The position numbers and the translations under genes are program-made. Below, piece by piece: positions 690 through 29,927 of a DNA stretch of 40,653 nucleotides (the first letter of the stretch is position 1; each line of letters starts with the position of its first letter). The stretch is from a virus (Duplodnaviria > Caudoviricetes). Below the pieces are notes generated by a model. It was not told the origin of the DNA. It saw only the letters and a program-made list of their open reading frames with translations, and searched no databases. Where the stretch lies: IMG/VR virus record IMGVR_UViG_3300005805_000176, positions 1 to 40,653 of that record; one strand, 5' to 3'.

Positions 690-730
690 ATTCTACACTA
701 TACATCGGCACAGTCAAGAGGAAATCATGA
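690..730 (-). promoter_or_regulatory. Overlapping sigma70-like (TTGACT-16-TAGAAT) and sigma28-like (TCATG-16-GCCGAT) promoter
   Basis: Motifs read directly upstream of the 665 ATG. Confidence 0.6.
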
Positions 731-747
731 GAAAATATTTATTGACT

Positions 748-825
748 TAAGTGGTTGATACGTAAGGACTTATGGCGAACGCGGCCCGCCCCCTTAGTTC
801 TAAATCCTTGTGCGATAAGGACTTA
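748..825. repeat. 78-bp double-palindrome element, copy 1
   Basis: TAAGTGGTT-gatacgt-AAGGACTTA (748-772), 28-bp spacer with GGCCCGCC, TAAATCCTT-gtgcgat-AAGGACTTA (801-825). Confidence 0.9.
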
Positions 826-996
826 GGAATTTTCGTAGACAAGCTTAACATACTTATCTACAAGTTCAGATACGGCAATTTCGTGAGTAGAGATCAGTTC
901 TTTTATCTGACTTACACTATGCTTGTTCACAGCGGCCATTTTATTCCTGAAAAAATTCAAGATATAAATCATAGCCTTATCACGATCATCAGTCAT
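823..996 (-). CDS. Hypothetical protein (probable start MTDDRDK...)
   Basis: Track ORF 823..1110. The internal ATG overlapping the upstream stop is the more plausible start. The stop codon lies inside the repeat arm. Confidence 0.55.
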   Translation of the reverse strand: MTDDRDKAMIYILNFFRNKMAAVNKHSVSQIKELISTHEIAVSELVDKYVKLVYENS

Positions 997-1303
997 ATAG
1001 CCCCTTAGTGTATTCCTCTGGAATGATTGGACACCAACTCTTTGCTCGTTCTTCATCATATGGATACCAGAATGGAGCGTCACAGGCGTCACAAACACCA
1101 AACGTAGCATTGGTGAATATATGAGAACAAAGCTCTATCACTTTTTCCTCATACACTTTCACACCATTCTCATCATAATAATATGGATTAAATGATCTTT
1201 CTTCATAAGAATAGTGACCGATCCACAGCCCAATGTTGGGACCAAAGTAATAAACCTTTTGTCCTACAGTTGGCGGATTCTTATGAGAGTTATTCCATTC
1301 CAC
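989..1303 (-). CDS. Hypothetical protein
   Basis: 104-aa ORF translationally coupled to its neighbours. Confidence 0.7.
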   Translation of the reverse strand: MEWNNSHKNPPTVGQKVYYFGPNIGLWIGHYSYEERSFNPYYYDENGVKVYEEKVIELCSHIFTNATFGVCDACDAPFWYPYDEERAKSWCPIIPEEYTKGLYD

Positions 1304-1503
1304 TACTTTAATCCTTCTCTTATCATTTGTATGAGATTAGAAGCATCGCCCAAAGCCGCAGATTCAAAATCATTATCAAGATTCTCAGCAACGTTATCCA
1401 GTATATCCTCAATGTTCATTAATGCAATAGCCATATCCTTTGATGACAAATCATCGCTATCAATACTAAGAGCATTGGATATTTGTTTCTTTGTGATTCT
1501 CAT
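1303..1503 (-). CDS. Hypothetical protein
   Basis: 66-aa ORF behind an extended -10 (TGGTATAAT at ~1516-1524). Confidence 0.65.
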   Translation of the reverse strand: MRITKKQISNALSIDSDDLSSKDMAIALMNIEDILDNVAENLDNDFESAALGDASNLIQMIREGLK

Positions 1504-1544
1504 TTCTTTGTCGCAATTATACCATGCTTTATTGGTTGTATTGA

Positions 1545-1679
1545 AGCGTGGACAGGGAATCGCACCCCGTTAGATTGGTATACTATCCCAACGTATAACC
1601 CCGTTAGGCAACCCCACGCTGCATAACAGACCGTAGGTTTATCGTACAGGTTATCCCAATCTAGTCGCTAGACCCACGC
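1545..1679 (-). ncRNA. tRNA-like structured RNA (acceptor stem + T-arm, with a ~90-nt multi-helix insert)
   Basis: GCGTGGG/TCCACGC acceptor stem, CGGGG-TGCGATT-CCCTG T-arm, TAGATTGG/CCAATCTA helix enclosing further stems; lies 36 nt downstream of tRNA-Met. Confidence 0.6.
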
Positions 1680-1714
1680 AATTTACCACCGCAACTCAAA
1701 CGTCAGCCTCCGAA

Positions 1715-1790
1715 TAGGGGAAGTTGGATTCGAACCAACGATCTTCGGCTTATGAGGCCGACGAGAACGACCGAACTTCTCTATTCCCCG
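1715..1790 (-). tRNA. tRNA-Met(CAT), initiator-like
   Basis: Cloverleaf CGGGGAA..GAGA/TCTC..TCGGC-CTCATAA-GCCGA..GTTGG-TTCGAAT-CCAAC-TTCCCCT-A; C1xU72 mismatch and A11:U24. Confidence 0.9.
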
Positions 1791-1945
1791 ACATTATACC
1801 ATTCGTTAGAATCATCGTATATGTTCAACTCTGTATCTTCATCGTCATAGACTTCCTCTATCATATCTTCCTCATATTCTCTATAAGGATCGGCATAGTA
1901 GTCACGGTCGCCCATGACGAATTCGTTGTAAAGAAAGTTGCTCAT
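1781..1945 (-). CDS. Small very acidic protein (54 aa), possible DNA mimic
   Basis: Manual translation MSNFLYNEF...YEEDMIEEVYDDEDTELNIYDDSNEWYNVGE; ATG follows a consensus -10 after a 7-nt gap. Confidence 0.6.
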   Translation of the reverse strand: MSNFLYNEFVMGDRDYYADPYREYEEDMIEEVYDDEDTELNIYDDSNEWYNVGE

Positions 1946-1952
1946 ATATCTT

Positions 1953-1981
1953 ATTATACTTAGTCAGTTGTCTTTTGTCAA
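1953..1981 (-). promoter_or_regulatory. Consensus sigma70 promoter TTGACA-17-TATAAT
   Basis: Perfect -35/-10 hexamers with 17-bp spacing. Confidence 0.8.
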
Positions 1982-1989
1982 GCCCAAAA

Positions 1990-2062
1990 TGCCCCCGCTA
2001 GGAATCGAACCTAGAACCCACGGATTAAAAGTCCGATGCTCTGCCAATTGAGCTACAAGGGC
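1990..2062 (-). tRNA. tRNA-Lys(TTT)
   Basis: GCCCTTG-TA-GCTC..GAGC-A-TCGGA-CTTTTAA-TCCGT..CTAGG-TTCGATT-CCTAG-CGGGGGC-A. Confidence 0.92.
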
Positions 2063-2156
2063 AAATATAAGGGTTATGCCATACTCGGCTTTGCATTTAA
2101 CCGTGGCTTCTTTGATATCATTCTGCCATCGGCCCTTATATATGTATTATATCTTT

Positions 2157-2402
2157 CTACGGCAAGAAGTCAAGCATCTCGTTTCCATTTTCATCTTCAT
2201 AGCCATAAGTGGTATCTTCAACAATTTCTCTAGCCTTTTCCATATACTCATCCATGTCAGACTGTTCTAGCCAGTTATCCAGCAATTCGCTTGCAATTTC
2301 ATCATGAATAAAGTGTAGGAAATCTTCCGGCCAATTCTCTTGGGGCGTAGTATATATCTCACGCAATTGTCTAGCAGTATATTTGTCAAAGATATTAGTC
2401 AT
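2157..2402 (-). CDS. Acidic hypothetical protein
   Basis: 81-aa ORF coupled (ATGA overlap) to the upstream gene. Confidence 0.7.
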   Translation of the reverse strand: MTNIFDKYTARQLREIYTTPQENWPEDFLHFIHDEIASELLDNWLEQSDMDEYMEKAREIVEDTTYGYEDENGNEMLDFLP

Positions 2403-2914
2403 ATATTCTCCTTAGTCCACCAATATGGAGCATCTCGCCCCTTTTCCCATTTCGCAAAACGTCCTTTTTCCATTATATAGTATCGGCGGTAAGAGTCAAC
2501 AGCATTAGACGATCTATACTGTTCTGGCATAGCAAGGGCAAAGTGTGTCATAGCAACGCCGGGAAACGGCATCTTCAACACATCTATCCAATACATCTTA
2601 TCTATACCATCTTCACAGAAATGCCTCTTTTTAAATCTCAATGTATATTCTTTACAAAGTTGTTTGGCATGATTGGTCGCCCACGTATAATTAACCGTAG
2701 AGTCACCAACCCACTTTGTACATGGATGATTGTGGTATCCGCCCTTAAGGGGCTTCCCAGCCTTCGTAACGGGCATCATATCATCTGTAGCACCGTGCCT
2801 ACGCAAAGCACTGCCCAACTGCTGATACAGTTCCACAACCATCTTAGGAATGTGCTTGTCGCAATACATCTCTGCTGCGACTACTGGATGCTCATCTAAT
2901 ACGAATATGTTCAT
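2399..2914 (-). CDS. Pyrimidine-dimer DNA glycosylase/endonuclease V-like protein
   Basis: MNIFVLD..P..AA..CDKH..KM..E..Q.L N-terminus, HNHPC..W, EYT.RF.K.H, AMP.QY and YR.YY..EK..FA.W motifs typical of this phage family. Confidence 0.8.
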   Translation of the reverse strand: MNIFVLDEHPVVAAEMYCDKHIPKMVVELYQQLGSALRRHGATDDMMPVTKAGKPLKGGYHNHPCTKWVGDSTVNYTWATNHAKQLCKEYTLRFKKRHFCEDGIDKMYWIDVLKMPFPGVAMTHFALAMPEQYRSSNAVDSYRRYYIMEKGRFAKWEKGRDAPYWWTKENI

Positions 2915-2920
2915 ATGCTT

Positions 2921-2960
2921 AGTCTACAATATGATCGGCAATTTGTCAAGACTAACTTGA
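2921..2960 (-). promoter_or_regulatory. Overlapping sigma70 (TTGACA-17-TAGACT) and sigma28-like (TCAAG-16-GCCGAT) promoter
   Basis: Read directly; ATG 2914 follows the -10 after a 6-nt gap. Confidence 0.7.
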
Positions 2961-3004
2961 AAATTTTTGTCGCTGGCGCTGACTACTGGTGCGGACTAAT
3001 GACC

Positions 3005-3109
3005 TTAGTCCTTCGGGCAAGACAACTCCCGTTCCGCCCATGCCACCCATTCTTCCCAAACTAACAACTCAACTGTTTCATCTTCGGGCTGCGTGTATTC
3101 CTCACACAT
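3005..3109 (-). CDS. Small acidic Trp-rich peptide (34 aa)
   Basis: Manual translation MCEEYTQPEDETVELLVWEEWVAWAERELSCPKD with GGGGTG RBS-like sequence. Confidence 0.4.
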   Translation of the reverse strand: MCEEYTQPEDETVELLVWEEWVAWAERELSCPKD

Positions 3110-3121
3110 TATATCACCCCT

Positions 3122-3322
3122 TTATTTCATGTCAATATGTACAACCTTGAAATTCGGTTTCATCCAATCTAGAATACTCAGTCCATCTATCTCACACGGA
3201 TATTCTTCCTTACATAATTCTCTTATTTCCGCATCACTCGCCCATGTTTCCTCGTTTGTTTTTTCTATCCAAAATGCCGCTCTTTTCTCACTTGGCTCAA
3301 CTACTAACTTCTTGACTCTCAT
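3122..3322 (-). CDS. Hypothetical protein
   Basis: 66-aa ORF directly behind a promoter. Confidence 0.65.
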   Translation of the reverse strand: MRVKKLVVEPSEKRAAFWIEKTNEETWASDAEIRELCKEEYPCEIDGLSILDWMKPNFKVVHIDMK

Positions 3323-3340
3323 CTTACTCTTTCACCATGC

Positions 3341-3381
3341 AGTATACATACCATATCGGAAACTGTCAAGCATGGTCTTGA
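3341..3381 (-). promoter_or_regulatory. Overlapping sigma70 (TTGACA-17-TATACT) and sigma28-like (TCAAG-16-TCCGATA) promoter
   Basis: Read directly. Confidence 0.7.
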
Positions 3382-3400
3382 AGAAATCCGAAACTCTACA

Positions 3401-3478
3401 TAAGTATATACACTATAAGGACTTACGACAAATCTCGCCCGCCGCCGCCGCCCTAAACCCTTGTGTAGCAAGGACTTA
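3401..3478. repeat. 78-bp double-palindrome element, copy 2
   Basis: TAAGTATAT-acactat-AAGGACTTA, 28-bp spacer with GCCCGCC, TAAACCCTT-gtgtagc-AAGGACTTA. Confidence 0.9.
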
Positions 3479-3507
3479 GAGCGGTTTTGGCGAAGAAAGA
3501 AAGAAGA

Positions 3508-3906
3508 TCAAATCAAACTAGCGAACCTGTACAGAATACCACCAACCGGAACCAACTTGCAATTCTCGACACGATCACTCCAGAACCGGCGATACTCACC
3601 ATTAGGCATGACACAGTTGACAAGCCTACCCTTACGGGCGAACATCGAATCATACTTACGATATCGACTACGCACGTTCAGGTTTTCGATTTCATCATTA
3701 GTCCAAGATTCATTAGAGACAACCTTGGCTAAGAATCGTTCTCTCGTACCAGACAATGGCTGAATATAATCAAAATTATAAACACTATTAGGTTTAGCAT
3801 TCGTGAAATTGGCCCTCATATTCATAAGAAAGAAAGTAGCAACGCAAAGGCCGAACACAGTCAGACCAAAGCAAACAGCCAAAGCAACATCAACATTCAT
3901 CATCAT
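3508..3906 (-). CDS. Hypothetical protein with N-terminal transmembrane segment
   Basis: 132 aa, hydrophobic stretch at residues ~7-29, AGGAG RBS, own promoter. Confidence 0.75.
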   Translation of the reverse strand: MMMNVDVALAVCFGLTVFGLCVATFFLMNMRANFTNAKPNSVYNFDYIQPLSGTRERFLAKVVSNESWTNDEIENLNVRSRYRKYDSMFARKGRLVNCVMPNGEYRRFWSDRVENCKLVPVGGILYRFASLI

Positions 3907-3939
3907 CTAATCAACTCCTAGTGGGAAAACCTTTTCTAC

Positions 3940-3968
3940 ATTCTACAATACGGGCAGGCGGTTGTCAA
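3940..3968 (-). promoter_or_regulatory. sigma70 promoter TTGACA-17-TAGAAT
   Basis: Read directly. Confidence 0.75.
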
Positions 3969-4219
3969 GCCTCAACTGGCTCGTCAACCTCATCATCTTC
4001 AACATCTTCTGAGAAGCAGGCATCGTTGATAGCCTCAATGTCCAAGCCGCTATCGTTATAGGCTACATGGTCAGGAGTTTCAAGCGTACCACAATTCCGC
4101 AGAATATCAACAAACTCATCGTAATTAGCACAGCAACGGGACAAAGTATAGAGTCCTTCATCGTTTCCAATCCAAAGGGCTACATTCCACGTTTCGTAAT
4201 TCTTCCAACCGTTATACAT
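3965..4219 (-). CDS. Conserved phage hypothetical protein (YNGWxNYETW family), acidic tail
   Basis: YNGWKNYETWNVALWIGNDE motif, familiar from phage early genes. Confidence 0.75.
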   Translation of the reverse strand: MYNGWKNYETWNVALWIGNDEGLYTLSRCCANYDEFVDILRNCGTLETPDHVAYNDSGLDIEAINDACFSEDVEDDEVDEPVEA

Positions 4220-4243
4220 CTTTCTTTCTCCTGTGTTGTTCGT

Positions 4244-4285
4244 ATTCTATACTCTATATCGGCAGATGTCAAGGGAGTTTCTTAA
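4244..4285 (-). promoter_or_regulatory. Overlapping sigma70 (TTGACA-17-TAGAAT) and sigma28-like (TTAAG-17-GCCGATA) promoter
   Basis: Read directly. Confidence 0.7.
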
Positions 4286-4508
4286 TTTTTTCCAGCATCT
4301 CCGCAACTTCAGCAAAGTCAAGCCATCCTACCACATCATCCGCGATTGGCGTATCGTAGCAGATTCCGCCGTCCTTAAGGATAGCAACCTCAAACAGTCC
4401 ACTTTTGCCACCATACGTGAATGGCGTAGATACAACGCTGGCACCATAGCCGTTGTCAAATCGATACGTCTTGTGATATCCGTCAAGCATCATCTTCTCC
4501 TCTTTCAC
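4269..4508 (-). CDS. Conserved phage hypothetical protein (FxNGYGASVV family)
   Basis: YRFDNGYGASVV...GLFEVA...YDTPI.DDV.GW motif; true start may be a downstream ATG near 4493. Confidence 0.75.
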   Translation of the reverse strand: MKEEKMMLDGYHKTYRFDNGYGASVVSTPFTYGGKSGLFEVAILKDGGICYDTPIADDVVGWLDFAEVAEMLEKIKKLP

Positions 4509-4511
4509 TCT

Positions 4512-4552
4512 AGTCTATCCTGTATATCGGCAGGCGTCAAGCGAAATCTTTA
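4512..4552 (-). promoter_or_regulatory. Overlapping sigma70 (TTGACG-17-TAGACT) and sigma28-like (TAAAG-16-GCCGATA) promoter
   Basis: Read directly. Confidence 0.7.
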
Positions 4553-4571
4553 GAAAATTTTTTGGTGAACG

Positions 4572-4649
4572 TAAGTGCTTGATAGATAAAGACTTAGAGC
4601 AAATTTTGCCCGCCCGCCGCGTCGTAAGTCCTTACGTGGCAAGGCTTTG
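4572..4649. repeat. 78-bp double-palindrome element, copy 3
   Basis: TAAGTGCTT-gatagat-AAAGACTTA, 28-bp spacer with GCCCGCC, TAAGTCCTT-acgtggc-AAGGCTTTG. Confidence 0.9.
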
Positions 4650-4651
4650 CG

Positions 4652-4723
4652 TCAACTTATAAAGTATGCAAACACCATGCCCATAAGGAAGGCAGTCGTG
4701 ATGATCTTTTGTTCAGCAGTCAT
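4652..4723 (-). CDS. Putative 23-aa membrane peptide
   Basis: MTAEQKIITTAFLMGMVFAYFIS; GGAG RBS; stop abuts the repeat. Confidence 0.35.
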   Translation of the reverse strand: MTAEQKIITTAFLMGMVFAYFIS

Positions 4724-4823
4724 TTTTCTCTCCGTAGATTACTTCGCACAGGGTCCAACAGAAGAACACACCAGATACATATCCTATCGTCATACTGATC
4801 CAATCAAGTTGAATGTATTCCAT
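4713..4823 (-). CDS. Putative 36-aa membrane peptide
   Basis: MEYIQLDWISMTIGYVSGVFFCWTLCEVIYGEKNDC; TGATG-coupled to upstream ORF. Confidence 0.45.
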   Translation of the reverse strand: MEYIQLDWISMTIGYVSGVFFCWTLCEVIYGEKNDC

Positions 4824-5014
4824 CACATTTCCACCCTTTCATATCTGAACGATTCAACCGAACCAACCAAGCTTTCCAAGGCACCCGACACTGCGACGAG
4901 ATGCTCTTGTCGTTCCATTGCACAACTCATGTCATGCTCTGGCACACTCACCACGCAACTGTTGTAGGGCGTACCATCCTCAGTCACAATATCAAAGCAC
5001 TTGTAGGTCAACAT
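4823..5014 (-). CDS. Hypothetical protein
   Basis: 63-aa ORF, TAATG-coupled. Confidence 0.6.
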   Translation of the reverse strand: MLTYKCFDIVTEDGTPYNSCVVSVPEHDMSCAMERQEHLVAVSGALESLVGSVESFRYERVEM

Positions 5015-5268
5015 TAGAAATCTTCTCCGTAGTAGTTGTCATCACCGTAGAACCCATAATCTTCATCTGTTCCCCAACCCGCACTCGCAAGACCGGATTC
5101 ATGATCTCCGTCCATGCTATCATCATAATGGTCAGCCCATGAATCATTGGCTGCGTCTTCCTCGTTTCCATAGAAATCGTTGTAATCGTCATAGTTCTCA
5201 TTCTCAATCATCATGTCATCATCCTCATAGGCGTTGTCTTCATCGAACAGCGGATCAGGGTGACTCAT
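5014..5268 (-). CDS. Extremely acidic protein (84 aa), possible DNA mimic
   Basis: ~30 D/E, no K/R, aromatic-rich; AGGA RBS; own promoter. Confidence 0.75.
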   Translation of the reverse strand: MSHPDPLFDEDNAYEDDDMMIENENYDDYNDFYGNEEDAANDSWADHYDDSMDGDHESGLASAGWGTDEDYGFYGDDNYYGEDF

Positions 5269-5290
5269 AATCGTTTCCTTTCTTTCTTAG

Positions 5291-5326
5291 TTATCGACAT
5301 TATACAGGCCAGACTTTAGTTGTCAA
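5291..5326 (-). promoter_or_regulatory. Overlapping sigma70 (TTGACA-16-TATAAT) and sigma28-like (TAAAG-15-GTCGATAA) promoter
   Basis: Read directly. Confidence 0.75.
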
Positions 5327-5492
5327 GAGAATTTTTTTGAAAAATCGTGTCCAAATAAATCTCCCTATTCGTCACAACCCACCCATATTCACAGGTCGGC
5401 GTATAGGTTCCAATGTACATCTTTCCACTATCGAATCCCTCAAATCCTACCCCATATCCTAACATACTGACCATCATTACGATACTGTACAT
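5316..5492 (-). CDS. Hypothetical 58-aa protein, hydrophobic N-terminus
   Basis: Manual translation MYSIVMMVSMLGYGVGFEGFDSG...; AAGGA RBS; below the track length cut-off. Confidence 0.5.
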   Translation of the reverse strand: MYSIVMMVSMLGYGVGFEGFDSGKMYIGTYTPTCEYGWVVTNREIYLDTIFQKNSLDN

Positions 5493-5527
5493 CTGTTTTT
5501 CCTTAGTGAAATCTTCCTATATATTAG

Positions 5528-5553
5528 ATCGGCAAATTATCTCCGCATCTTGA
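5528..5553 (-). promoter_or_regulatory. Stand-alone sigma28-like promoter TCAAG-15-GCCGAT
   Basis: Same motif as the other copies but without an overlapping TTGACA. Confidence 0.55.
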
Positions 5554-5570
5554 ATAGAAAAATATTTCTC

Positions 5571-5648
5571 TAAGTCTTTATCTGACAAGGGTTTACGACG
5601 AACGCGGCCCGCCGCCCTCGCCCTAAGTCCTTTAGCAGCAAGGGCTTA
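5571..5648. repeat. 78-bp double-palindrome element, copy 4
   Basis: TAAGTCTTT-atctgac-AAGGGTTTA, 28-bp spacer with GGCCCGCC, TAAGTCCTT-tagcagc-AAGGGCTTA. Confidence 0.9.
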
Positions 5649-5651
5649 CGA

Positions 5652-5834
5652 CTAATTCTTAATGGCTCTGTATCTGTTCAGAAGTTCAGTTGCAGCGGCC
5701 TTGATTCCCTCGCACAGAATCTCACGCACCGCACCCCTCTCATTGGGGAGTTGCCATTGTGCTTCTCGCAGCCACAATTGAATGGTGCTAGTGTTCATTT
5801 GTTCAAACGTAGGCTGAAAATAGTTGGGATTCAC
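5652..5834 (-). CDS. Hypothetical protein
   Basis: 60-aa ORF, GTG start with AAGGA RBS; stop abuts the repeat. Confidence 0.6.
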   Translation of the reverse strand: MNPNYFQPTFEQMNTSTIQLWLREAQWQLPNERGAVREILCEGIKAAATELLNRYRAIKN

Positions 5835-5845
5835 TGTTTTTCCTT

Positions 5846-6028
5846 TTAGTTAGTGTACTCTGACTCAGGATAAATTTCACTGAAAATTTCGTCCGCAATC
5901 CCTACAACTTCTGCCCAATCTAGCGGATGACAGTCGCTCTCGTCAATCGGCTCTGCGATAGGCTCTACGATATTCTGATCGGCCAAATCATTGAGAATCC
6001 CGTTGATTGCTTCAAAATCGTACATCAT
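5846..6028 (-). CDS. Acidic hypothetical protein (~60 aa)
   Basis: AAGGAG RBS before ATG 6028 within track ORF 5846..6088; ~16 D/E, no K/R. Confidence 0.65.
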   Translation of the reverse strand: MMYDFEAINGILNDLADQNIVEPIAEPIDESDCHPLDWAEVVGIADEIFSEIYPESEYTN

Positions 6029-6084
6029 TTTCTCCTTACGAAGTTCGCCAACAAAGGACATCATACGCGGGAAGTGTGTCATTG

Positions 6085-6270
6085 TCAACCCCCTAAAGTA
6101 GAAAGATATTCCTGATTGTAGAAAATCACATCTTCCATAGCATCAATCTCACGATAGATCTCTGCACGAATGGACGCAGGCATTCCATCATCCAACCTAT
6201 CACGCAGATCAGCGATCTTCCGCATAGCCCAACTGGTTTCATTCATCACGGTTTCTTTGTCAGTCATCAT
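6085..6270 (-). CDS. Hypothetical protein
   Basis: 61-aa ORF behind TTGTAC-17-TAGATT promoter (6295-6323). Confidence 0.6.
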   Translation of the reverse strand: MMTDKETVMNETSWAMRKIADLRDRLDDGMPASIRAEIYREIDAMEDVIFYNQEYLSTLGG

Positions 6271-6344
6271 CTTCTTTCTCTCTTTCTTCTAACCAATCTA
6301 TCAAACTTTTCCGCCCCGTACAACCCCCTTATCGGGGGATGCGA

Positions 6345-6494
6345 CTAGCACTCTTGAATGTAGTCAGCGTAGCGGTAGCGGCTACGGGCTTCCATCCAAG
6401 CGACCGTGTAGGACTCTGCATACACGAAGCCAAGAAACTCAGTCCGACTATCACAAACCATCCAGCGAATCAACTTTTCCGTTTTCATCATCAT
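6345..6494 (-). CDS. Hypothetical 49-aa protein (downstream of sigma54-type promoter)
   Basis: Manual translation MMMKTEKLIRWMVCDSRTEFLGFVYAESY...; purine-rich leader. Confidence 0.5.
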   Translation of the reverse strand: MMMKTEKLIRWMVCDSRTEFLGFVYAESYTVAWMEARSRYRYADYIQEC

Positions 6495-6521
6495 TCTCTC
6501 TTTCTTTCTATGTCTATATAG

Positions 6522-6646
6522 TGCATACGCCGTGCCAAACCAAAAAGAATTTTTTTGTGCGATTTTCTCGGGATTTACGCATGTATGCCACTATGGCAGT
6601 GTTGCATTATGCTGCACATTGTAGCATTTTGCATTGCATTTTGCAA
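6522..6646 (-). promoter_or_regulatory. sigma54 -24/-12 promoter (TGGCACGGCGTATGCA, 6537-6522) plus upstream GCA-N4-TGC palindromic boxes (6586-6646)
   Basis: Exact GG-N10-GC spacing; repeated TTGCATTTTGCAA-like boxes 50-110 bp upstream. Confidence 0.75.
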
Positions 6647-6653
6647 TTCGTTA

Positions 6654-6731
6654 CAACTCTATATATGACAAGTACTTACGTCGATTTTTGCCCGCCCCGT
6701 TCGTCCTAAGTCCTTTGGCGATAAGGGTTTA
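6654..6731. repeat. 78-bp double-palindrome element, copy 5
   Basis: CAACTCTAT-atatgac-AAGTACTTA, 28-bp spacer with GCCCGCC, TAAGTCCTT-tggcgat-AAGGGTTTA. Confidence 0.85.
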
Positions 6732-6747
6732 TGTCAAATGTGGAGAA

Positions 6748-7059
6748 TCACTCCCCCTCAAAGGGGGACATCTCATCTTCCATAAGGCTTGCATACTGTG
6801 CAATCAACGCTTCCACCCTTTCGGGGGAACCGGGCTTACCAACCTTGAACCGCATACGATCCTCACCACCTACAAGGCGAGGGTCAGCCTTGACTAGTGT
6901 ACTCTTGCTCAGTTCACGCATAGCCTTACGATTGAACTTCAGCACCTTCTCACTACGGATGGTCGAACCATCTGCGGTCTTCTTATCGCAAGGAATAGCG
7001 ATGCCCTTGAAGCAAAGGAAGGCTTGACGCTTGGCATTTTCAACGATTGGGAACTTCAT
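6748..7059 (-). CDS. Basic hypothetical protein
   Basis: 103-aa ORF behind TTGTAA-16-TAGAAT promoter (7087-7114). Confidence 0.75.
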   Translation of the reverse strand: MKFPIVENAKRQAFLCFKGIAIPCDKKTADGSTIRSEKVLKFNRKAMRELSKSTLVKADPRLVGGEDRMRFKVGKPGSPERVEALIAQYASLMEDEMSPFEGE

Positions 7060-7119
7060 GGTTTTCTCTCTTTCTTTCTTTATCTTATTCTATCAACTTT
7101 ATCCGCGATTACAACCCCA

Positions 7120-7254
7120 CTATCGAGCGAGGAGATTCTGAAGGTAGGCCAACTTAGCGGTATCTGCCCTAAACTGCCCATTCTGAATACAACTCACAAC
7201 CTTACCATCTACCACGAAGGCCAACGTGCTATTTGTAATCTTTACAACTTTCAT
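7120..7254 (-). CDS. Hypothetical 44-aa protein (downstream of sigma54-type promoter)
   Basis: Manual translation MKVVKITNSTLAFVVDGKVVSCIQNGQFRADTAKLAYLQNLLAR. Confidence 0.5.
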   Translation of the reverse strand: MKVVKITNSTLAFVVDGKVVSCIQNGQFRADTAKLAYLQNLLAR

Positions 7255-7285
7255 CTTTCACTCTCTCTTTCTACCTACTATATAA

Positions 7286-7430
7286 TGCACATGCCGTGCC
7301 AAAGCCAAAGATTTTTTGAGCCTAGAAAACAAGGGGTTTCTGATCGTATCCCCCAAAGGTAGGTGTAGCATAATGCGTCACTTTTTGCATTTTGCAACCT
7401 ATATGTAGACGATTTCGTAGCATTTTGCAA
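7286..7430 (-). promoter_or_regulatory. sigma54 -24/-12 promoter (TGGCACGGCATGTGCA, 7301-7286) plus upstream GCA-N4-TGC boxes (7366-7430)
   Basis: Exact GG-N10-GC spacing; TAGCATAATGC, TTGCATTTTGCAA and TAGCATTTTGCAA upstream. Confidence 0.75.
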
Positions 7431-7460
7431 CACTCAAACCACAATATATAGAATTTGTCG

Positions 7461-7538
7461 TAAGTCATTGGCAATAAAGGATTTACATCGAATTTGGCCC
7501 GCCCTATGCGACCTAAGTCGTTATATCACAAGGACTTA
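7461..7538. repeat. 78-bp double-palindrome element, copy 6
   Basis: TAAGTCATT-ggcaata-AAGGATTTA, 28-bp spacer with GGCCCGCC, TAAGTCGTT-atatcac-AAGGACTTA. Confidence 0.9.
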
Positions 7539-7717
7539 AGACGCATTACAATATTGTAGCATTCATCAAAAGTGACATGATCAGCGTATACCCTACCATG
7601 GAGGTATACTGTATATCTGTCACCTACTCTATTAGCCGTTGTCCAGTAAATCATTGATTTCCTCATCATACCAACCATCTGCATCCTCAACAAGCCACTC
7701 AATACCGTTTTCATCAA
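7526..7717 (-). CDS. Hypothetical protein (true start may be internal)
   Basis: ORF whose 3' end runs into the repeat arm. Confidence 0.45.
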   Translation of the reverse strand: MMKTVLSGLLRMQMVGMMRKSMIYWTTANRVGDRYTVYLHGRVYADHVTFDECYNIVMRLKSL

Positions 7718-7739
7718 TCATGATTTTCATGTGTGTATC

Positions 7740-7937
7740 CTAATACTTGATCATCTTATTTGCAACCCAAAATCGAATCATTCCAGAAACATAGCGATTC
7801 GTAGTGATCGAATCCGTAACGTCTTTTCCAGCATTGTGAATACTCTGGATAACGTAGGTTCCACTCGGGAAAACCTTGAACGTCACAACGTTAGGGCCAA
7901 CATTCTTCGTATGCCAAGTTTCAAATACGCACTGCAT
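7740..7937 (-). CDS. Hypothetical protein
   Basis: 65-aa ORF directly behind a strong promoter. Confidence 0.65.
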   Translation of the reverse strand: MQCVFETWHTKNVGPNVVTFKVFPSGTYVIQSIHNAGKDVTDSITTNRYVSGMIRFWVANKMIKY

Positions 7938-7964
7938 CTTCTTTCTCTCTTTCTTACTTCTTAT

Positions 7965-7998
7965 ATCGACATTATACCACGGGATTCTTGAATGTCAA
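7965..7998 (-). promoter_or_regulatory. Overlapping sigma70 (TTGACA-16-TATAAT, extended TG) and sigma28-like (TCAAG-16-GTCGATA) promoter
   Basis: Read directly; A/T tract (UP-like) upstream. Confidence 0.75.
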
Positions 7999-8029
7999 TA
8001 GGCAAAAAATATTTTTTTCGGATTTTCTC

Positions 8030-8107
8030 TAAGTGGTTGCTACATAAGGACTTACATCAAATTTGGCCCACTGTCTATGATCTAAGTGGTTGATATATAT
8101 AGACTTA
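8030..8107. repeat. 78-bp double-palindrome element, copy 7 (outermost)
   Basis: TAAGTGGTT-gctacat-AAGGACTTA, 28-bp spacer with TTTGGCCC, TAAGTGGTT-gatatat-ATAGACTTA. Confidence 0.88.
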
Positions 8108-8253
8108 GATGGGGGTAGTTTTATCTTATAATACTTTCCCAGTTTTGGCGGCGCGTCAGCGTGGGGTGGTTATTACGCAATATCCAATGTATTATTGATA
8201 TGTATTACCCAATCTTCCCGTGTCAGCCCCCTGTGCCAAATAGTGCTACATGT

Positions 8254-8262
8254 GTGTATAAT
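8254..8262 (+). promoter_or_regulatory. Putative late promoter GTGTATAAT
   Basis: Motif recurs before several late genes. Confidence 0.55.
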
Positions 8263-8281
8263 AGGTAGAAGGAGATCCAAT

Positions 8282-8446
8282 ATGACCGAAAAGAAACAAT
8301 TAGATTGTGAATTGAATTGCAAATCTACCGCTAGTTTGAACTACGGTATTATTCAGGACTTACTACAGCCCGACGCTCCTATGGCTGAATTAGTAAAAGA
8401 AAAGGAAGAAGATGAAGTTAAAGATAACTCAGAATCCAGTAATTGA
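8282..8446 (+). CDS. Small hypothetical protein (MTEKKQL...)
   Basis: AAGGAG RBS before ATG 8282 inside track ORF 8195..8446. Confidence 0.55.
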   Translation: MTEKKQLDCELNCKSTASLNYGIIQDLLQPDAPMAELVKEKEEDEVKDNSESSN

Positions 8447-9197
8447 AAAAGCAAATCCTCTTCCAGATACATTCGATTTGCATCTCCTTGGCACCGAGGC
8501 TCTATATGAATATGCTCCAGATATGGAGTTTAATAAGGATGCCTTTAATTCTAATAATTGCAGCTTTTATAATAATTTTGGCACCAGTAACCGCTTCTAT
8601 TATAGAATTGAGAAGCTGCGTAATAATACCGTTGAAGATCTAGAATTTGGCATTGGTTGTCTAATAAAAGAAAATGATATTATTTTCTTACGTAGATTGC
8701 AGCCCTTTATTCATCAATATCAAAACAATCCGCCCCAGCAGTGCTTTGAACCCTGTTATAACTTTAGATATTGTTCTCCCGGTGAGTACATTGTAGCAAA
8801 GGCTCACGTTCCGTCAACCCCCGGAGAACTATTAATAGATCCATATTCTATTATTGCATCACAAAGTATCGGACTACCATCTGTAGTCAATATGAAGAAT
8901 AATTCACTCTTAGCCAGAACAGATGAAGGTATTGTATCACTAAAAACATCTGACTTATCTTCCTTAGAAGGCTTTTCTGAATCTACCAAAACAGCCCTTT
9001 GTGATTATACAAAGCAGCTTATTCTTAGCACTACCCAGCTTTATGCCAAAAAACTAAAAACAGAACAGCTTCAATTTAGCCCCTGTGATATTTCTAATGC
9101 CAAAGAAGGCACCTTGATTTACAACAAAGAAGACAAGACATTATGTTATTATACTGGAGAGAAATGGAGAGTTTTGGATTGGCATGAAGAAGCCTAA
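8412..9197 (+). CDS. Hypothetical protein, possibly virion-associated (distant resemblance to 32039..32710)
   Basis: F..G..N.FYY.IE...E.GIG motif shared with the 32039 product; C-terminal GTLIYN..LCYYTG.KW. Confidence 0.6.
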   Translation: MKLKITQNPVIEKANPLPDTFDLHLLGTEALYEYAPDMEFNKDAFNSNNCSFYNNFGTSNRFYYRIEKLRNNTVEDLEFGIGCLIKENDIIFLRRLQPFIHQYQNNPPQQCFEPCYNFRYCSPGEYIVAKAHVPSTPGELLIDPYSIIASQSIGLPSVVNMKNNSLLARTDEGIVSLKTSDLSSLEGFSESTKTALCDYTKQLILSTTQLYAKKLKTEQLQFSPCDISNAKEGTLIYNKEDKTLCYYTGEKWRVLDWHEEA

Positions 9198-9684
9198 GAA
9201 CATGACAGAACAAGAAGTTCTGGATAAAATTAATACTGTAGTTAATCGAATCGCCCCCAAGTATACATTCAACGGATATGACGTTGATGATATAAAACAA
9301 GAGGCTTTTCTAATCTGCATGGACGCCCTAGATCGTTATGATCAAAAGCGCCCCCTAGAGAATTTCCTAGCAGTTAACTTATCCAACCGACTTAAGAACT
9401 TCGTTAGAGATAACTATTTTACTAAAAAGGATGAGGATAAGAAGAAAGCCCTCAATCCAACCCACTTAGCATACGAAGACGCCCTTCCATCTGACGAAAT
9501 AGATAATGACTCATCCATTGACGCAAATGAAATGAAACGTATTATAGACCAGTATTTACCCAAAGAACTCCGTGCAGATTATCTCAAGATTATTAATGAT
9601 GTATATGTACCTAAGAAACGTAAAGAGTTTATAATTTCCACCCTTAAAAAGATATTAGAGGATAATGGTTATGAAAAAGGGTAG
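9184..9684 (+). CDS. Phage RNA polymerase sigma factor (sigma70 region 2-like)
   Basis: DDIKQEAFLICMDALDRYDQKRPLENFLAVNLSNRLKNFVRD matches the region 2 pattern. Confidence 0.8.
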   Translation: MKKPKNMTEQEVLDKINTVVNRIAPKYTFNGYDVDDIKQEAFLICMDALDRYDQKRPLENFLAVNLSNRLKNFVRDNYFTKKDEDKKKALNPTHLAYEDALPSDEIDNDSSIDANEMKRIIDQYLPKELRADYLKIINDVYVPKKRKEFIISTLKKILEDNGYEKG

Positions 9685-10456
9685 GATATCAAAAGAAGAG
9701 GAACGCGCTATCGCCCGACTCGTAGATACTATGACTGTCGAAGATATTGCTAAGCAACTCGACAGAGATGTAGAGTCGGTAGAAAGTTTTATTAAACGTA
9801 AGTTCCGCGTTGGCATTAGTAACGAAGAAGCCGCCGCATTTTCCCTAGAGGATCGCCCCTATTACTATGAACTCAAGTCCCAGTTCACCGATGAGGAACT
9901 AGAACTCTTTAAGTATCATTGGTCCCGTATTATATCCCAGTTTAAGGATGACGTATTTCCAACAGAAGAGTTACAGGTAATTGACGTAATTAAGCTAGAA
10001 ATACTTATGAACAGATGCCTGAAAAGTAATAAAGATAACATTGCGCAAATTAGTACATACGAAGCAATGCTTGCTGACGAAAGATCCCGCGATAAAGACC
10101 AACAGGATAATGACTATATATTTAACTTAGAAAGACAAACAGCTTCTCTCAGAGCCGCCCAAGAGAGTTTAAATAAAGACTATCGTGAATTACAAACCAA
10201 GAAGGCCGCAATGCTTAGAGAGATGAAAGGCACAAGAGAGCAGAGAATTAAGAGACTAGAAGATTCGAAGCAAAGCTTTACATCTTGGGTAGCACATCTG
10301 ATGCAAGATCCAGATACGCTGAAGCGTTACGGGGTCGAGATGGAAAAGATGAGGATGGCGATGATGAAAGAAAAGGAACGCTTAAGCGCGTTCCATAAAT
10401 ATGATGACGGGATTGTAGATCAACCTTTTTTAACTCCCGACACGGTAATTGAATGA
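9665..10456 (+). CDS. HTH plus coiled-coil protein, candidate terminase small subunit
   Basis: N-terminal helix-turn-helix (MTVEDIAKQLDRDVESV), long coiled coil, upstream of terL; the TerS role is inferred from position. Confidence 0.5.
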   Translation: MVMKKGRISKEEERAIARLVDTMTVEDIAKQLDRDVESVESFIKRKFRVGISNEEAAAFSLEDRPYYYELKSQFTDEELELFKYHWSRIISQFKDDVFPTEELQVIDVIKLEILMNRCLKSNKDNIAQISTYEAMLADERSRDKDQQDNDYIFNLERQTASLRAAQESLNKDYRELQTKKAAMLREMKGTREQRIKRLEDSKQSFTSWVAHLMQDPDTLKRYGVEMEKMRMAMMKEKERLSAFHKYDDGIVDQPFLTPDTVIE

Positions 10457-10503: not shown

Positions 10504-11058
10504 ATGTTGCTATACGAACCAATTAAACTACATGAGCCACTTACGATACAGCCCGCAACGGCTTGGGGCAAGATCCCAACCATTCTATTAGATCTGATAG
10601 AACGAGCTAAATTAAATACTAATGTATGCCTAGAGTTTGGCGTTGAATATGGATACTCCACATCTGCATTAGCCAACTACTTTACCAAAGTGATTGGCGT
10701 AGATACGTTTGATGGAGATATACATTCTGGAATTAAAAATAACCATTTTGAACAAACCAAGCAGATTTTATCTATATATCCAAATATAGAATTAGTGAAA
10801 TCAACATATCAAGATTTTATTGTTAATAACGAAAATTATTATGATTTAATTCATATAGACATTGTACACACGTATCAAGACACGCTTGATTGTGGAGAAT
10901 GGTCTATACAACATGCTGATTGTGTCATCTTCCATGATACTGAGTCTTTTCATAATGTCAAGTTAGCCGTAACAGACTTAGCTAGTAAATACAATTTATA
11001 TTTCTATAACTTTGTGGAATCTTGTGGTTTAGGAATTTTAACAAAAAGGATGATTTGA
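10504..11058 (+). CDS. Class I SAM-dependent methyltransferase
   Basis: LEFGVEYGYS motif I, GVDTF, DLIHIDxxHTY and IFHD motifs. Confidence 0.85.
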   Translation: MLLYEPIKLHEPLTIQPATAWGKIPTILLDLIERAKLNTNVCLEFGVEYGYSTSALANYFTKVIGVDTFDGDIHSGIKNNHFEQTKQILSIYPNIELVKSTYQDFIVNNENYYDLIHIDIVHTYQDTLDCGEWSIQHADCVIFHDTESFHNVKLAVTDLASKYNLYFYNFVESCGLGILTKRMI

Positions 11059-12122
11059 TGAATAAGGCAATTATTTTCGGAATTACAGGACAGGATGGAA
11101 GCCACCTAGCAGATTTACTTCTAGAGAAGAACTACGAAGTTATTGGTGTCGCAAGACGTTCCAGTGTAGATAATACAAAAAGAATAAAACATATACTCTC
11201 TCATGAAAGATTCGAACTGATTGAGGGCGACATTACAGATGTAAGTAGCATCATGAATGTCCTAAGTAATTACGGGAATGTAGATGAAATCTACAACTTA
11301 GCTGCACAGTCGCATGTCGGAACATCCTTCAAACAGCCAGCACTTACGTGGGATATTACTGGTAAAGGATGTATGAATATACTACAGGCCATTGTGGATC
11401 TCAATCTATTCAATATTAGATTTTATCAAGCCTCGTCTAGCGAAATGTTTGGTGGCTCATATGATGTAGATATTAATGGTACAAAATACCAGAACGAAGA
11501 TACCAAATTTATGCCAAATTCACCATATGCGATATCTAAGTGTGCCGCCCATCAGGCTGTCAGATTATATCGTGAGGCTTATAATTTACATGCTAGCGCC
11601 GGTATCCTATTCAATCATGAAGGTCCGCGCCGAGGAGATAACTTTGTAACGAAGAAAATTATTAACTGGATTCAAGAATTTTCAGGATGGCTACAGAAGT
11701 ACCAACTTGATCCTTCTAGATTAAGTGTGTCTGGTGAGCTTCTTTTTCCTTCTGTAACGGGTACTAGCTTTAAGAGATTAAGACTTGGTAATTTAGATGC
11801 ATTTAGAGATTGGGGATATGCTGGAGATTATGTAGAAGCTATGTGGCTGATGCTACAGCAAGAGACTCCAGATGATTATGTGATTTGTACTGGAGAGACA
11901 CACACTGTAGCCGAATTTTTAGATATTGCTTGTAATATGGCTGGCCTGCCCGAATGGAGACAATATATTATTATTGATCCAGAGCTATTCAGGCCATCGG
12001 AAGTAGATTATCTGCGTGGAGACTGCACAAAAGCAAAAGAGAAACTAGGATGGACCCCAAAGCATAACTTAGAGGATCTAGTAAGGTTAATGCTTAATGA
12101 GAAACTTCAGACTAACAGTTGA
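11058..12122 (+). CDS. gmd: GDP-mannose 4,6-dehydratase
   Basis: GITGQDGSHLA, YNLAAQSHVGTSF, FYQASSSEMFG, SPYAISK, GILFNHEGPRRG, LGNLDAFRDWG, RPSEVDYL; start at ATG 11058. Confidence 0.96.
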   Translation: MNKAIIFGITGQDGSHLADLLLEKNYEVIGVARRSSVDNTKRIKHILSHERFELIEGDITDVSSIMNVLSNYGNVDEIYNLAAQSHVGTSFKQPALTWDITGKGCMNILQAIVDLNLFNIRFYQASSSEMFGGSYDVDINGTKYQNEDTKFMPNSPYAISKCAAHQAVRLYREAYNLHASAGILFNHEGPRRGDNFVTKKIINWIQEFSGWLQKYQLDPSRLSVSGELLFPSVTGTSFKRLRLGNLDAFRDWGYAGDYVEAMWLMLQQETPDDYVICTGETHTVAEFLDIACNMAGLPEWRQYIIIDPELFRPSEVDYLRGDCTKAKEKLGWTPKHNLEDLVRLMLNEKLQTNS

Positions 12123-25067: not shown

Positions 25068-26687
25068 ATGAGCGATGATTGTTTTCCTAAAGAATGTTTT
25101 AGACCAGACATTACAGGCAAACGGCACGACAAATTTTTAGATGTGCCGAACAATCCTTTTCTAAGCTTCACTACCACTCTGCCGCCAAATACTACTACAA
25201 CCACCACTACCACTAGTAGTCCATTCTCTACAGAACTATTATCGTCTATTGTAGTTCCTATTCCCGGCCAACCGTGTCCAGTTACTAGACCTCAAGACGG
25301 CACAACTATACCACCAATTTTGTTTAATATTACTGGAGGTATAATAACAGATTATGATATATATAGATCACACACTTTTCTTACAGACGGCGAACTAAAA
25401 GTAGAATTACTTTCTGGAGAACTGTTTGATACATTAGATGGCGTATTTGAAGTTGAATATTTTATTGTTGCTGGCGGTGGCGGTGGTGGACAACCATCTG
25501 GTGGTGGTGGAGGCGGTGCTGGAGGAGTTTTAAGTGGTAAAACCAAGCTTTCAGTGACTACATATCCAATTATAGTCGGAAGAGGCGGTCAGCAAAATCA
25601 AAATGGATCAAATTCATCATTTAAAAGTTTTACAGCTATAGGTGGAGGCAGAGGAGGCTCATTTAGACGCAACGATGCTGGAAATGGTGGTAGCGGAGGC
25701 GGTGCCGGTGCTGATAGTAATGGTACTGGAGGATTTAATTCTGGAATACAAGGTGGTCGCGGCGGCAATGCTAATGGAACATCAGCTACAGCTGGAGCGG
25801 GTGGCGGTGGAGCCAAAAAATCTGGATCTTCTACTTCAAGCTGGTTAATATATAATAATCCTAATACAACCGGCAACGGGGGCGATGGTATAGAAAATGA
25901 TTTTCGTAATGGTAATATGCAATATTATGCCGGTGGCGGCGGTGGCGGTTCTGACACAGTAAATGGTGCTGGCGGCATTGGCGGCGGTGGAAGCCCATGT
26001 CCAAACAATGGAACATTAAAAAATGCACCACCTAATACTGGCTCTGGAGGCGCTGGCGCAGGATGCGCACCTAATAATTCAAATAACGCAGGCTCTGGTG
26101 GATCTGGTATAGTTATTATCAGATATATTAAACCAGTTGCTACAACTACTACCACCACTACGACAACAACCACAACTACAACAACGACTACAACTACTAC
26201 AACTCAGCCACCAATTACTACGTCTACTACAACTACCACGACAACCACTACCACGACTACTATATCACCAAATTGTCAATTTAATTTGACCCAAAAAGTA
26301 GGCATATTAATATCTAAGGTGCCATTTGCTCCAGAATATATTTCTAATAAGAAAAATAGTATCAATTTACTTGGATGTAATAATAACTATTATTCATGCT
26401 TTGCAGGCACAACTCTACCGTCAAACAATGCAATATTTCAAACATTAGTCTATAATATAGACACACAGCAAAGATTAGAACTAAATTTTGATATAGATTG
26501 CACAACAAAAACCATTAATGGCTTTGTGCTTTTAAGTATCTTCAATAGATTTACTGGCGCTCTTATTCATAGGAAAATCTTTGATATTTCTTCTTTCGTA
26601 GATATTTCTCAATTTAGATTTAATAGCAATTATGATTTTTCTGGCATAACATATTACTATATTTTTGATCTAGGATCTTCTTTTTAA
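25068..26687 (+). CDS. Glycine-rich virion/adhesin protein with poly-Thr linkers
   Basis: VAGGGGGG...GGSGIVIIRY Gly-rich domain flanked by Thr runs. Confidence 0.75.
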   Translation: MSDDCFPKECFRPDITGKRHDKFLDVPNNPFLSFTTTLPPNTTTTTTTTSSPFSTELLSSIVVPIPGQPCPVTRPQDGTTIPPILFNITGGIITDYDIYRSHTFLTDGELKVELLSGELFDTLDGVFEVEYFIVAGGGGGGQPSGGGGGGAGGVLSGKTKLSVTTYPIIVGRGGQQNQNGSNSSFKSFTAIGGGRGGSFRRNDAGNGGSGGGAGADSNGTGGFNSGIQGGRGGNANGTSATAGAGGGGAKKSGSSTSSWLIYNNPNTTGNGGDGIENDFRNGNMQYYAGGGGGGSDTVNGAGGIGGGGSPCPNNGTLKNAPPNTGSGGAGAGCAPNNSNNAGSGGSGIVIIRYIKPVATTTTTTTTTTTTTTTTTTTTTQPPITTSTTTTTTTTTTTTISPNCQFNLTQKVGILISKVPFAPEYISNKKNSINLLGCNNNYYSCFAGTTLPSNNAIFQTLVYNIDTQQRLELNFDIDCTTKTINGFVLLSIFNRFTGALIHRKIFDISSFVDISQFRFNSNYDFSGITYYYIFDLGSSF

Positions 26688-26696
26688 GGAAATATC

Positions 26697-29600: not shown

Positions 29601-29927
29601 GATGGATTAATTTATGTTTTGTGCAAGCAAACTCTTAAGTGTCAAAAAACATCTGGTGATTGCGAGCCTAATTTGTCACAAAGTACTAATGAGGTTGTAC
29701 TTGAAAGTTGTTGTAGTAATTATACGGCACAGCAACTATTAAATAGAGCAACTAATTACTATGGTATGACACCATCAGCAAAATTCGCACCAGAATGTGC
29801 AGCCATACCAACTATAGCCTTTGCTGACTGTGCATCTCCAGACGCAAATGGCAATTGTCAAGATGTAGTTCACTATGAAACTCTAGATACAATATTATGT
29901 TCTAGTTCTGAGCAACCATTACCATGA
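26697..29927 (+). CDS. Multidomain virion protein with circularly permuted FGE-sulfatase (C-type lectin fold) domain and poly-Thr linkers
   Basis: DQGGNVSEW..RGGNW..GFRVA and KYEVTN..PVNFVNW..PSENEWYKAA motifs; Cys-rich C-terminus. Confidence 0.8.
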   Translation: MANSIGFAGWEQGAGRGRIGAFTKAISIFDIDNDLIFQRLFLNTVHWSHRKDRSKVIILDTEDQPFNDKLSQLVSSIGYSPVIANPWYTYNTSQADNDAALYILFPSYNPFGGLRMPNAGQSGIISTVTNFGAGLLVSEWFHYLQSLRGKRSFQYTINNDGLYKLSPLIISDNLTYSAPDSITFSQNVPQDSITYTIPEQFRLNTSGLFVGYDGVISQIGEVKEDATIYLYTDIFARATTTTTTTTTLPPERNIKFKVGRVELFDYCGPHTVSLKGPSKDFFVLEGKDLYLTEDTGTTGIYNVTVAVEDYFRPKRFPDYEQDYRLEMIKCNPPLSKPLDGSGPAFSWRANHTNIWGVAAPYGIIRPFADYSLLGEGSPEDPVVAWLGGQHGDTNALWIQVNKSGPLNYSLRASSENADVGSLWIVSGIAPYQHNQGYNEFYYADPFTPILPGDSPNTNTLQLSGTESFPPITDAFRVRDVDISKQFFANFNKCADWNSIDGNVTTVGTNGGPSYYGTYDQGGNVSEWTEGLFADKRIIRGGNWSSEFSELSNIIRVLEDPLVISSGVGFRVATSGNPPNKLLLDNFVSVGNIGNAADNTGYGSVVHNYSINKYEVTNIEYATFLNYVANSSDPNSIYVEQMTSDPRGGIIRTGQSGSYVYTTKLNMANKPVNFVNWYSAVRYTNWLHNNRPSGIQNASTTEDGAYSLIDNVLNPQRKPNASYFIPSENEWYKAAYFKGGNINAGAGYWDYATQSDAPPRCLSAKTNGDGADVSTFLVLTYNKDNKLSRDDDRINLVAFIGTSTTTTTTTSTTTTTTTTTTTTTTEPPPVFTYTVNIVNKIQNGYVSTNRVNMIGGFNREIRCDLGGQFGVDIFANAPNLFFVNVPDIYVLDNNGIKINLCARLSPFTACPVFAWWYGGNNQFLNRYCFSLDYMPLDGGEITVVIDGEAVTTTTTTTTTTIPPTTPRPCDGLIYVLCKQTLKCQKTSGDCEPNLSQSTNEVVLESCCSNYTAQQLLNRATNYYGMTPSAKFAPECAAIPTIAFADCASPDANGNCQDVVHYETLDTILCSSSEQPLP

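Follow-up and report, generated by a model that had tools for sequence, protein, structure and literature searches.

A doubled palindromic site phased to downstream promoter motifs, an apparently undescribed element of a clade of large phages

What do seven 78-bp double palindromes, strung along one end of the known sequence of a tailed phage, do there? The elements lie in IMG/VR virus record IMGVR_UViG_3300005805_000176, a 40.6-kb fragment of the genome of an uncultured, tailed lake phage (40,653 nucleotides, all of which was analysed and is termed the window here). Its plus strand carries sigma factor, terminase, and major capsid genes, and its minus strand carries small uncharacterised genes, two tRNAs, and the elements. 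The answer toward which we lean is that the palindromes are paired sites for a host bending protein of the IHF/HU type, which would shape early promoters, with the swapping of gene cassettes as a by-product.

All seven copies listed in the original prediction are present (Table 1), and each comprises two palindromes that match the consensus TAAGTCCTT-N7-AAGGACTTA with 1–5 summed mismatches per palindrome. Twelve of the 14 palindromes have three mismatches or fewer, as compared with 0.07 expected from 100 shuffles. When offsets of 40–69 bp were scanned for pairs with at most nine summed mismatches, seven were found at 53 bp and none at any other offset. As proposed, the paired elements are confined to positions 748–8107; elsewhere in the window just two sites with five or fewer mismatches are observed, both unpaired, and the seven-base (N7) centres differ in all 14 palindromes. 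The first palindrome of element 5 is degenerate (five mismatches), and the core of element 7 reads GGCCCACT. Lake-water contigs from three runs of one study, one of which may itself be the source of the window, cover the copies with few differences: 463–1302 includes copy 748, and 3210–8942 includes copies 3401–8030. Contig joints that jump from one element to another, with sides of 21–24 letters, were set aside, and the data sets listed as containing the sequence include no RNA data set.

The element is not peculiar to this phage. An exact search with the inner arms and the 28-bp gap returned 65 partly overlapping viral loci; as this set is biased by the search, 44 loci were fetched instead by their neighbouring sigma-factor gene. 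The sigma-gene loci contain 20 distinct close site pairs, of which 17 are spaced at 53 bp, two at 52 bp, and one at 83 bp. Sites number 69 in 121 kb on the island side of the gene versus four in 392 kb on the other side. Upstream sequence of 2 kb or more is available at 20 loci, and a site is present at 14 of these. Five long relatives, with capsids 67–69% identical, contain 12–18 elements each in a single block, and three complete relatives (205–244 kb) contain 17–18 copies in one ~19-kb island of small genes. In the relatives, this ~19-kb block begins at the divergence of early and late genes. The element is a marker of one clade of large phages, for which a tblastn search for cultured relatives gave no major capsid match in 50,697 phage records. 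The 53-bp phasing, originally described as invariant, is so in the window and is typical of the clade, but it is not universal among other viral contigs. There, a free-gap scan covering 43 of 64 parts found full double sites with spacers of 28 (37 cases), 27 (11), 26 (5), and 25 bp (4), along with a few of 14–24, 30, and 43 bp. Given these variable spacers, 53 bp is a rule of the clade and not a law. A distant relative, L334, has six single palindromes 1.8–8.3 kb upstream of its sigma gene with no second palindrome, and a GC box and adjacent promoter motif are found at every one.

At the downstream end of the island, the three complete relatives (L366 19150–19620, L367 150–620, and L368 19560–20000) have a GC hairpin with a T-run, the last element, further single palindromes, and short GTAACAA repeats. 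All of these are conserved, and together they are possibly an origin or boundary structure.

Across 165 distinct elements, both palindromes have near-invariant columns, YAA with TT(R) on the left and (Y)AA with TTR on the right arm. The resulting site skeleton is YAA-N4-TTR-N5-YAA-N4-TTR, and all eight skeleton bases are retained in 263 of 330 sites. The middle four bases of the outer arms can vary, and the inner arms look more conserved than the outer ones, partly because the search selected for inner arms. The 25-bp palindromes of the original prediction are thus present, although the conserved site is longer, ~37 bp, with 6 bp more on each side (TTGNCG and CGNCAA flanks). The asymmetry first ascribed to the spacer core did not hold up: GGC(C/G)(C/G)GCC is centred on the dyad axis of the element, and the polarity resides in an A-run on the promoter side. 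Changes in the arms are uncompensated (4 of 376 deviant left-arm bases, as compared with 13.3 expected, and below chance in all pairings tested), which argues against a hairpin. As judged from this substitution pattern, each site is a duplex-DNA protein site and not an RNA structure. At the gathering score, Rfam assigns the two tRNAs in the window and nothing on the elements. A comparison with REP/BIME or MITE repeats, made by genome scans and not against a REP or MITE library, gave 0–3 strand matches per genome (5 and 401 genomes).

The helical phasing of the element to downstream −35 boxes, absent from the original prediction, is the strongest functional clue that the sequence offers. Among 162 non-redundant elements, an outward sigma70-like promoter motif is found on 92 flanks and an inward one on two, with 78 on the A-run side. 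The element-to-−35 offsets peak at 19–21, 29–32, 39–43, and 51–53 bp and are phased at 10.5 bp (R = 0.64, n = 76, Rayleigh p ~1e-14; best period 11–11.5 bp), also when the main peak is removed (R = 0.60, n = 46). As a control, distances from stop codons to −35 boxes that lack an element show no periodicity (R = 0.27, n = 24), as compared with R = 0.65 (n = 54) for the element-to-−35 distances in the same seven sequences. In the window, TTGAC lies 30–31 bp from four of the seven elements. Of the remaining three, one has a GCCGAT candidate promoter without TTGAC, and two lie ahead of TGCA repeats and boxes of a second kind. We take the promoter motifs of the window to be sigma70-, sigma28-, and sigma54-like, respectively, wherever these labels are used.

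Two further motifs accompany these promoters. At 4512–4560, at 5528–5553, and in promoters of the relatives, an internal GCCGATA with (T/C)NAAG 17–21 bp upstream is laid over TTGAC/TAnnnT, an overlay seen in 22 non-redundant cases on island promoters. The combination presumably resembles a sigma28 promoter with a spacer ~2 bp longer; the promoter of the element at 5571 has only the GCCGAT-type part. On the minus strand at 6523–6646 and 7287–7430, TGCAAAATGC-type repeats precede the sigma54-like boxes and could be candidate sites for an enhancer protein.

Which protein would occupy such a site? IHF introduces two DNA kinks 9 bp apart in a 35-bp site (PMC8421141), and Thermotoga HU and SPO1 TF1 each engage ~37 bp (PMC2475624, PMC2528193), as given in the available parts of these reports. 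By sequence alone, the TT-N7-AA skeleton and 37-bp conserved span of the element agree with the IHF kink geometry of 9-bp steps in a ~35-bp site. In a 501-bp stretch of lambda attP, the H′ site is the sole match to all eight skeleton bases. The original prediction proposed a search for a phage-encoded HU/IHF or recombinase, and neither was found in five relatives. As for HU/IHF, a PF00216 gene is missing from all five, four of which are at least 90% complete, so that a phage HU is an improbable binder; a phage-encoded, TF1-like system was rejected on these grounds. We infer that the binder is host-encoded and symmetric, that is, homodimer-like.

Single copies of the palindrome in bacterial genomes point in the same direction. 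A scan for the perfect single palindrome, covering 44 of 64 parts, returned 120 loci, including, by record titles, 41 in Spirochaetota and 26 in Planctomycetota. Forty-one of the 120 are located on the 3′ side of a called tRNA or tmRNA gene, no more than 10 bp away. Forty-eight are near a tRNA T-loop-like motif, 47 of them at 30–39 bp (median 34 bp, centre to centre); in lambda, the overlap (core) is 32 bp from H′. Tandem direct repeats lie beyond 24 of the 48 T-loop-associated sites versus 17 of 139 control flanks, and an integrase domain is encoded within 600 bp at five of 25 tRNA-adjacent loci (three over the Pfam cut-off). The tRNA-side palindromes thus appear to show the layout of lambda att, with a core, a bending site, and arm sites. 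As the single palindrome occupies the position of the lambda IHF site in bacteria, the phage pairs likely dock a host bending protein of the IHF/HU kind. At L202, L217, L235, L251, L253, L254, L264, and others, the palindrome sits between the tRNA 3′ end and tandem repeats of 11–13 bp; loci of the L202/L217/L235 type are in Spirochaetota and Planctomycetota genomes, and the palindrome there is a candidate symmetric H′-type site.

The 6-bp flanks of the phage site are matched at 11 of 26 Planctomycetota sites, three of 41 spirochaete sites, and four of 53 others, and they point weakly to a Planctomycetota host for the phage; host searches with the sigma factor and a ClpP-like protein returned relatives only. 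A strict 33-bp pattern occurs in two of 201 genomes of the Planctomycetota phylum, the seed genome being one of the two. A looser pattern occurs in 43 of 401 genomes versus 14 for a reversed control. Four of 30 looser-pattern loci adjoin tRNA or tmRNA genes, and four of the 28 scanned, from which 59 of 85 open reading frames (ORFs) were submitted, have an integrase ORF; most are next to housekeeping genes.

These data can be combined into a mechanism. A host dimer of the IHF/HU family would bind each 37-bp dyad, in pairs 53 bp apart, upstream of promoter-like sequence, and would kink the DNA at two TT/AA steps per dyad. Two in-phase bends could then loop ~90 bp about the GC core, with a fixed face presented to RNA polymerase, and the looped element may raise or safeguard the transcription of genes that are likely early. 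As no repeat of the island is better conserved than this module, homologous recombination within it would exchange, insert, and remove cassettes. The original suggestion of paired IHF/HU-type bending sites is retained with respect to the skeleton, the 37-bp span, the lack of covariation, the fit of H′, and the H′-like position in bacteria; agreement with the E. coli consensus is the part that is lost. The exact consensus was correctly reported at 748, 4572, and 8083, that is, at three of the 14 sites in the window, and WATCARNNNNTTR is found in just 24 of 450 sites overall. A canonical E. coli-type IHF site was rejected on this basis.

Several other observations weigh against host IHF/HU-type sites at promoters. 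H′ scores −11.2 on the phage matrix, the likeness being one of skeleton only, and conservation of the middle bases GTCC/GGAC exceeds the requirements of E. coli IHF. TTGAC is missing at three of the seven window elements, and no element accompanies the like promoter motifs that occur beyond the island at 10 and 13 per 20 kb. The phasing test draws on elements from related phages, which do not count as independent observations. Among the bacterial loci, 20 of the 25 next to tRNA genes gave no integrase domain when 600 bp was scanned, with 62 of 95 ORF pieces submitted. Nor are the bacterial matches independent, ~15 of them being one Spirochaetaceae tRNA-Asp family. In Spirochaetota, given the self-complementarity of the centres (2.12 of 3) and the frequent T-runs behind them, the copies may double as terminators.

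Other dimeric proteins could read the same dyads. If the dyads were operators of another regulator, phage- or host-encoded, that shuts off or times early transcription, then phasing and position upstream of promoters would be as well explained, and so would the specific middle bases. A phage candidate even adjoins the island: a conserved D5-like helix-turn-helix protein at 9665–10456 (phrog_323, E 4.5e-6). However, the sites do not overlap −35 or −10 boxes, and a phage protein would not account for the same dyad beside tRNA genes in the chromosomes of several phyla; we regard this explanation as unlikely. Still less probable is that the array compacts or helps to pull in the first-entering DNA, with promoter phasing secondary. 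The restriction of elements to one ~19-kb block starting at the early/late divergence suits such a role, as does long-contig depth in the lake-water runs (12.3–12.8 over the island versus ~6–10 over the head genes), an excess expected from a terminal repeat or packaging start. Contig depth from one study is not copy number, however. Some island contigs have depths of 7–10, strain sharing explains the excess equally well, and a role in entry does not predict phasing to the −35 box.

Two further explanations concern what the palindromes do as recombination sites or as RNA, and both are judged very improbable. A site-specific recombination site that shuffles cassettes, either a tyrosine core with a 7-bp overlap or a serine-type site with central crossover, is suggested by the 9-bp arms around 7 bp and the dyad core. 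Chimeric elements also occur among relatives, as does a 572-bp cassette indel that switches inside an element. Yet among 165 elements, 119 and 128 N7 centres are distinct, and the two centres within one element are alike at 1.93 of 7 positions versus 1.80 in shuffled pairs. Estimated switch points scatter from −11 to +92 (40 non-independent pairs), many indels lie away from elements, and four of the five relatives retain most of the cassette order. PF00239 (serine resolvase) is found in none of the five relatives, and PF00589 in none above cut-off, with one weak partial match below it in an ORF that is not integrase-like; a host recombinase is possible. The tyrosine-recombinase alternative of the original prediction was accordingly dropped, given the lack of a shared overlap and of a cognate recombinase in the five relatives, and a serine-resolvase res site was rejected for the missing PF00239 and the lack of a fixed crossover point. 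Homologous exchange at a conserved regulatory module is the best account of the shuffling. As for RNA, terminator hairpins that make the unit a PeSL (see below) would fit the placement of the element between stop codon and promoter, with stop codons often 2–20 bp away, and two of the seven window elements fold with z below −2. The folds of the seven are inconsistent, though (z from −2.85 to +1.14), and on the transcribed strand 217 of 963 and 235 of 963 arm pairs are mismatched. U-runs follow none of 107 first palindromes and eight of 107 second ones. With the missing covariation, these features led to rejection of an RNA terminator hairpin.

A bolder extension of the host-protein scheme, which we consider a long shot, can be outlined. 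The island would be the first-entering genome end, and its ~17 beads, self-assembling loops of two bends formed by a host homodimeric IHF-like protein, would show the GC dyad to a third factor, trapping RNA polymerase for several host sigma factors (sigma70, sigma28-like, and sigma54-like) before silencers or defences act. The symmetric IHF-type code would be that of integrative elements of Planctomycetota and Spirochaetota.

How does the element compare with known systems? It shares with the H′ site of lambda attP/attL, part of a heterobivalent tyrosine-integrase intasome, the AA-N4-TT-N7-AA-N4-TT skeleton and the ~35-bp length, and the bacterial single copies are likewise placed 30–39 bp from a presumed core, before tandem repeats. 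In contrast to H′, the phage site is symmetric, lacks an A-tract, and rarely contains WATCARNNNNTTR. It also comes as two copies 53 bp apart with a GC dyad between them, and its association is with promoters, not with an integrase. Borrelia Hbb, like SPO1 TF1 a dimer of the HU/IHF family with a long or specific site, is a homodimer with symmetric recognition. The 37-bp site of SPO1 TF1, as given in the available part of its report (PMC2528193), is also similar; unlike the TF1 and Hbb systems, the five relatives have no PF00216 gene, and the likeness is one of site length and symmetry. PeSLs, in the available parts of the reports on them, are terminator stem-loop cassettes upstream of early promoters in T4-type phages that shuffle genes (PMC2839356, PMC4122927). 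Like those so described, the element is a repeated intergenic module before sigma70-like promoters in a hyperplastic region of small genes, and crossovers inside it shuffle genes. A promoter in the variable region and gene shuffling by in-module crossovers are thus both observed, and a terminator stem-loop is not; the element instead lacks covariation and a U-run and has a rigid paired geometry with helical phasing. The injection stop signal region of T5, from what is available of the preprint (bioRxiv 10.1101/866236), similarly has palindromes and host-protein boxes in first-entering DNA, with bending proposed. That region is one non-coding cluster with DnaA boxes, whereas the present element recurs before promoters and its terminal position is putative.

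No description of the element was found in the literature searched, which excluded subscription journals and supplements, and the paired, phased array was not found there either. The element is apparently an undescribed variant of known parts, namely IHF-type sites, upstream activation, and repeat-mediated shuffling. It suggests that, in a widespread group of large aquatic phages, each early operon may be served by an architectural protein of the host. With hundreds of natural variants, the element would provide a symmetric binding code that can be tested on IHF/HU-like proteins from outside Proteobacteria, and it may be a counterpart to PeSL modules that seeds gene swapping without forming a hairpin.

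Table 1. Elements, promoter motifs, and gene island of the window
Feature	Position	Strand	Description	Basis
Element 1	748..825	.	palindromes 748–772 and 801–825, 28-bp spacer	consensus match and offset scan
Sigma70-like promoter (TTGAC, internal GCCGAT, TAGAAT)	690..717	-	−35 30 bp from element 1	motif label presumed
Element 2	3401..3478	.		consensus match and offset scan
Sigma70-like promoter	3341..3369	-	−35 31 bp from element 2	
Element 3	4572..4649	.		consensus match and offset scan
Sigma70-like promoter with A/T tract	4512..4540	-	−35 31 bp from element 3	
Element 4	5571..5648	.		consensus match and offset scan
Candidate promoter (TCAAG and GCCGAT, without TTGAC)	5528..5553	-	sigma28-like	label presumed
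Element 5	6654..6731	.	degenerate first palindrome	offset scan
Sigma54-like −24/−12 box	6523..6537	-	116 bp from element 5, TGCA-type repeats between	label presumed
Element 6	7461..7538	.		consensus match and offset scan
Sigma54-like box	7287..7301	-	downstream of element 6, TGCA-type repeats before it	
Element 7	8030..8107	.	adjoins divergence of minus-strand small genes and plus-strand sigma-factor and head genes	
Sigma70-like promoter (TTGACA/TATAAT)	7971..7998	-	−35 31 bp from element 7	
Small-gene island	989..7937	-	mostly uncharacterised genes and two tRNA genes, cut into cassettes by the elements	

Several minor features of the window lie near or beyond the island. A GGGGG..TTTTATCTT motif directly follows element 7 (8107–8125) and recurs behind the first element in several relatives. 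Between ~8200 and 8950, contig depth in the three lake-water runs falls from ~12.5 to 6–8, which may reflect a terminal repeat or packaging start, or else strain sharing. Genes for a methyltransferase and a GDP-mannose 4,6-dehydratase lie between the sigma factor and terminase genes (10504–12122), and several proteins of the virion region (25068–31600) contain long poly-threonine tracts.

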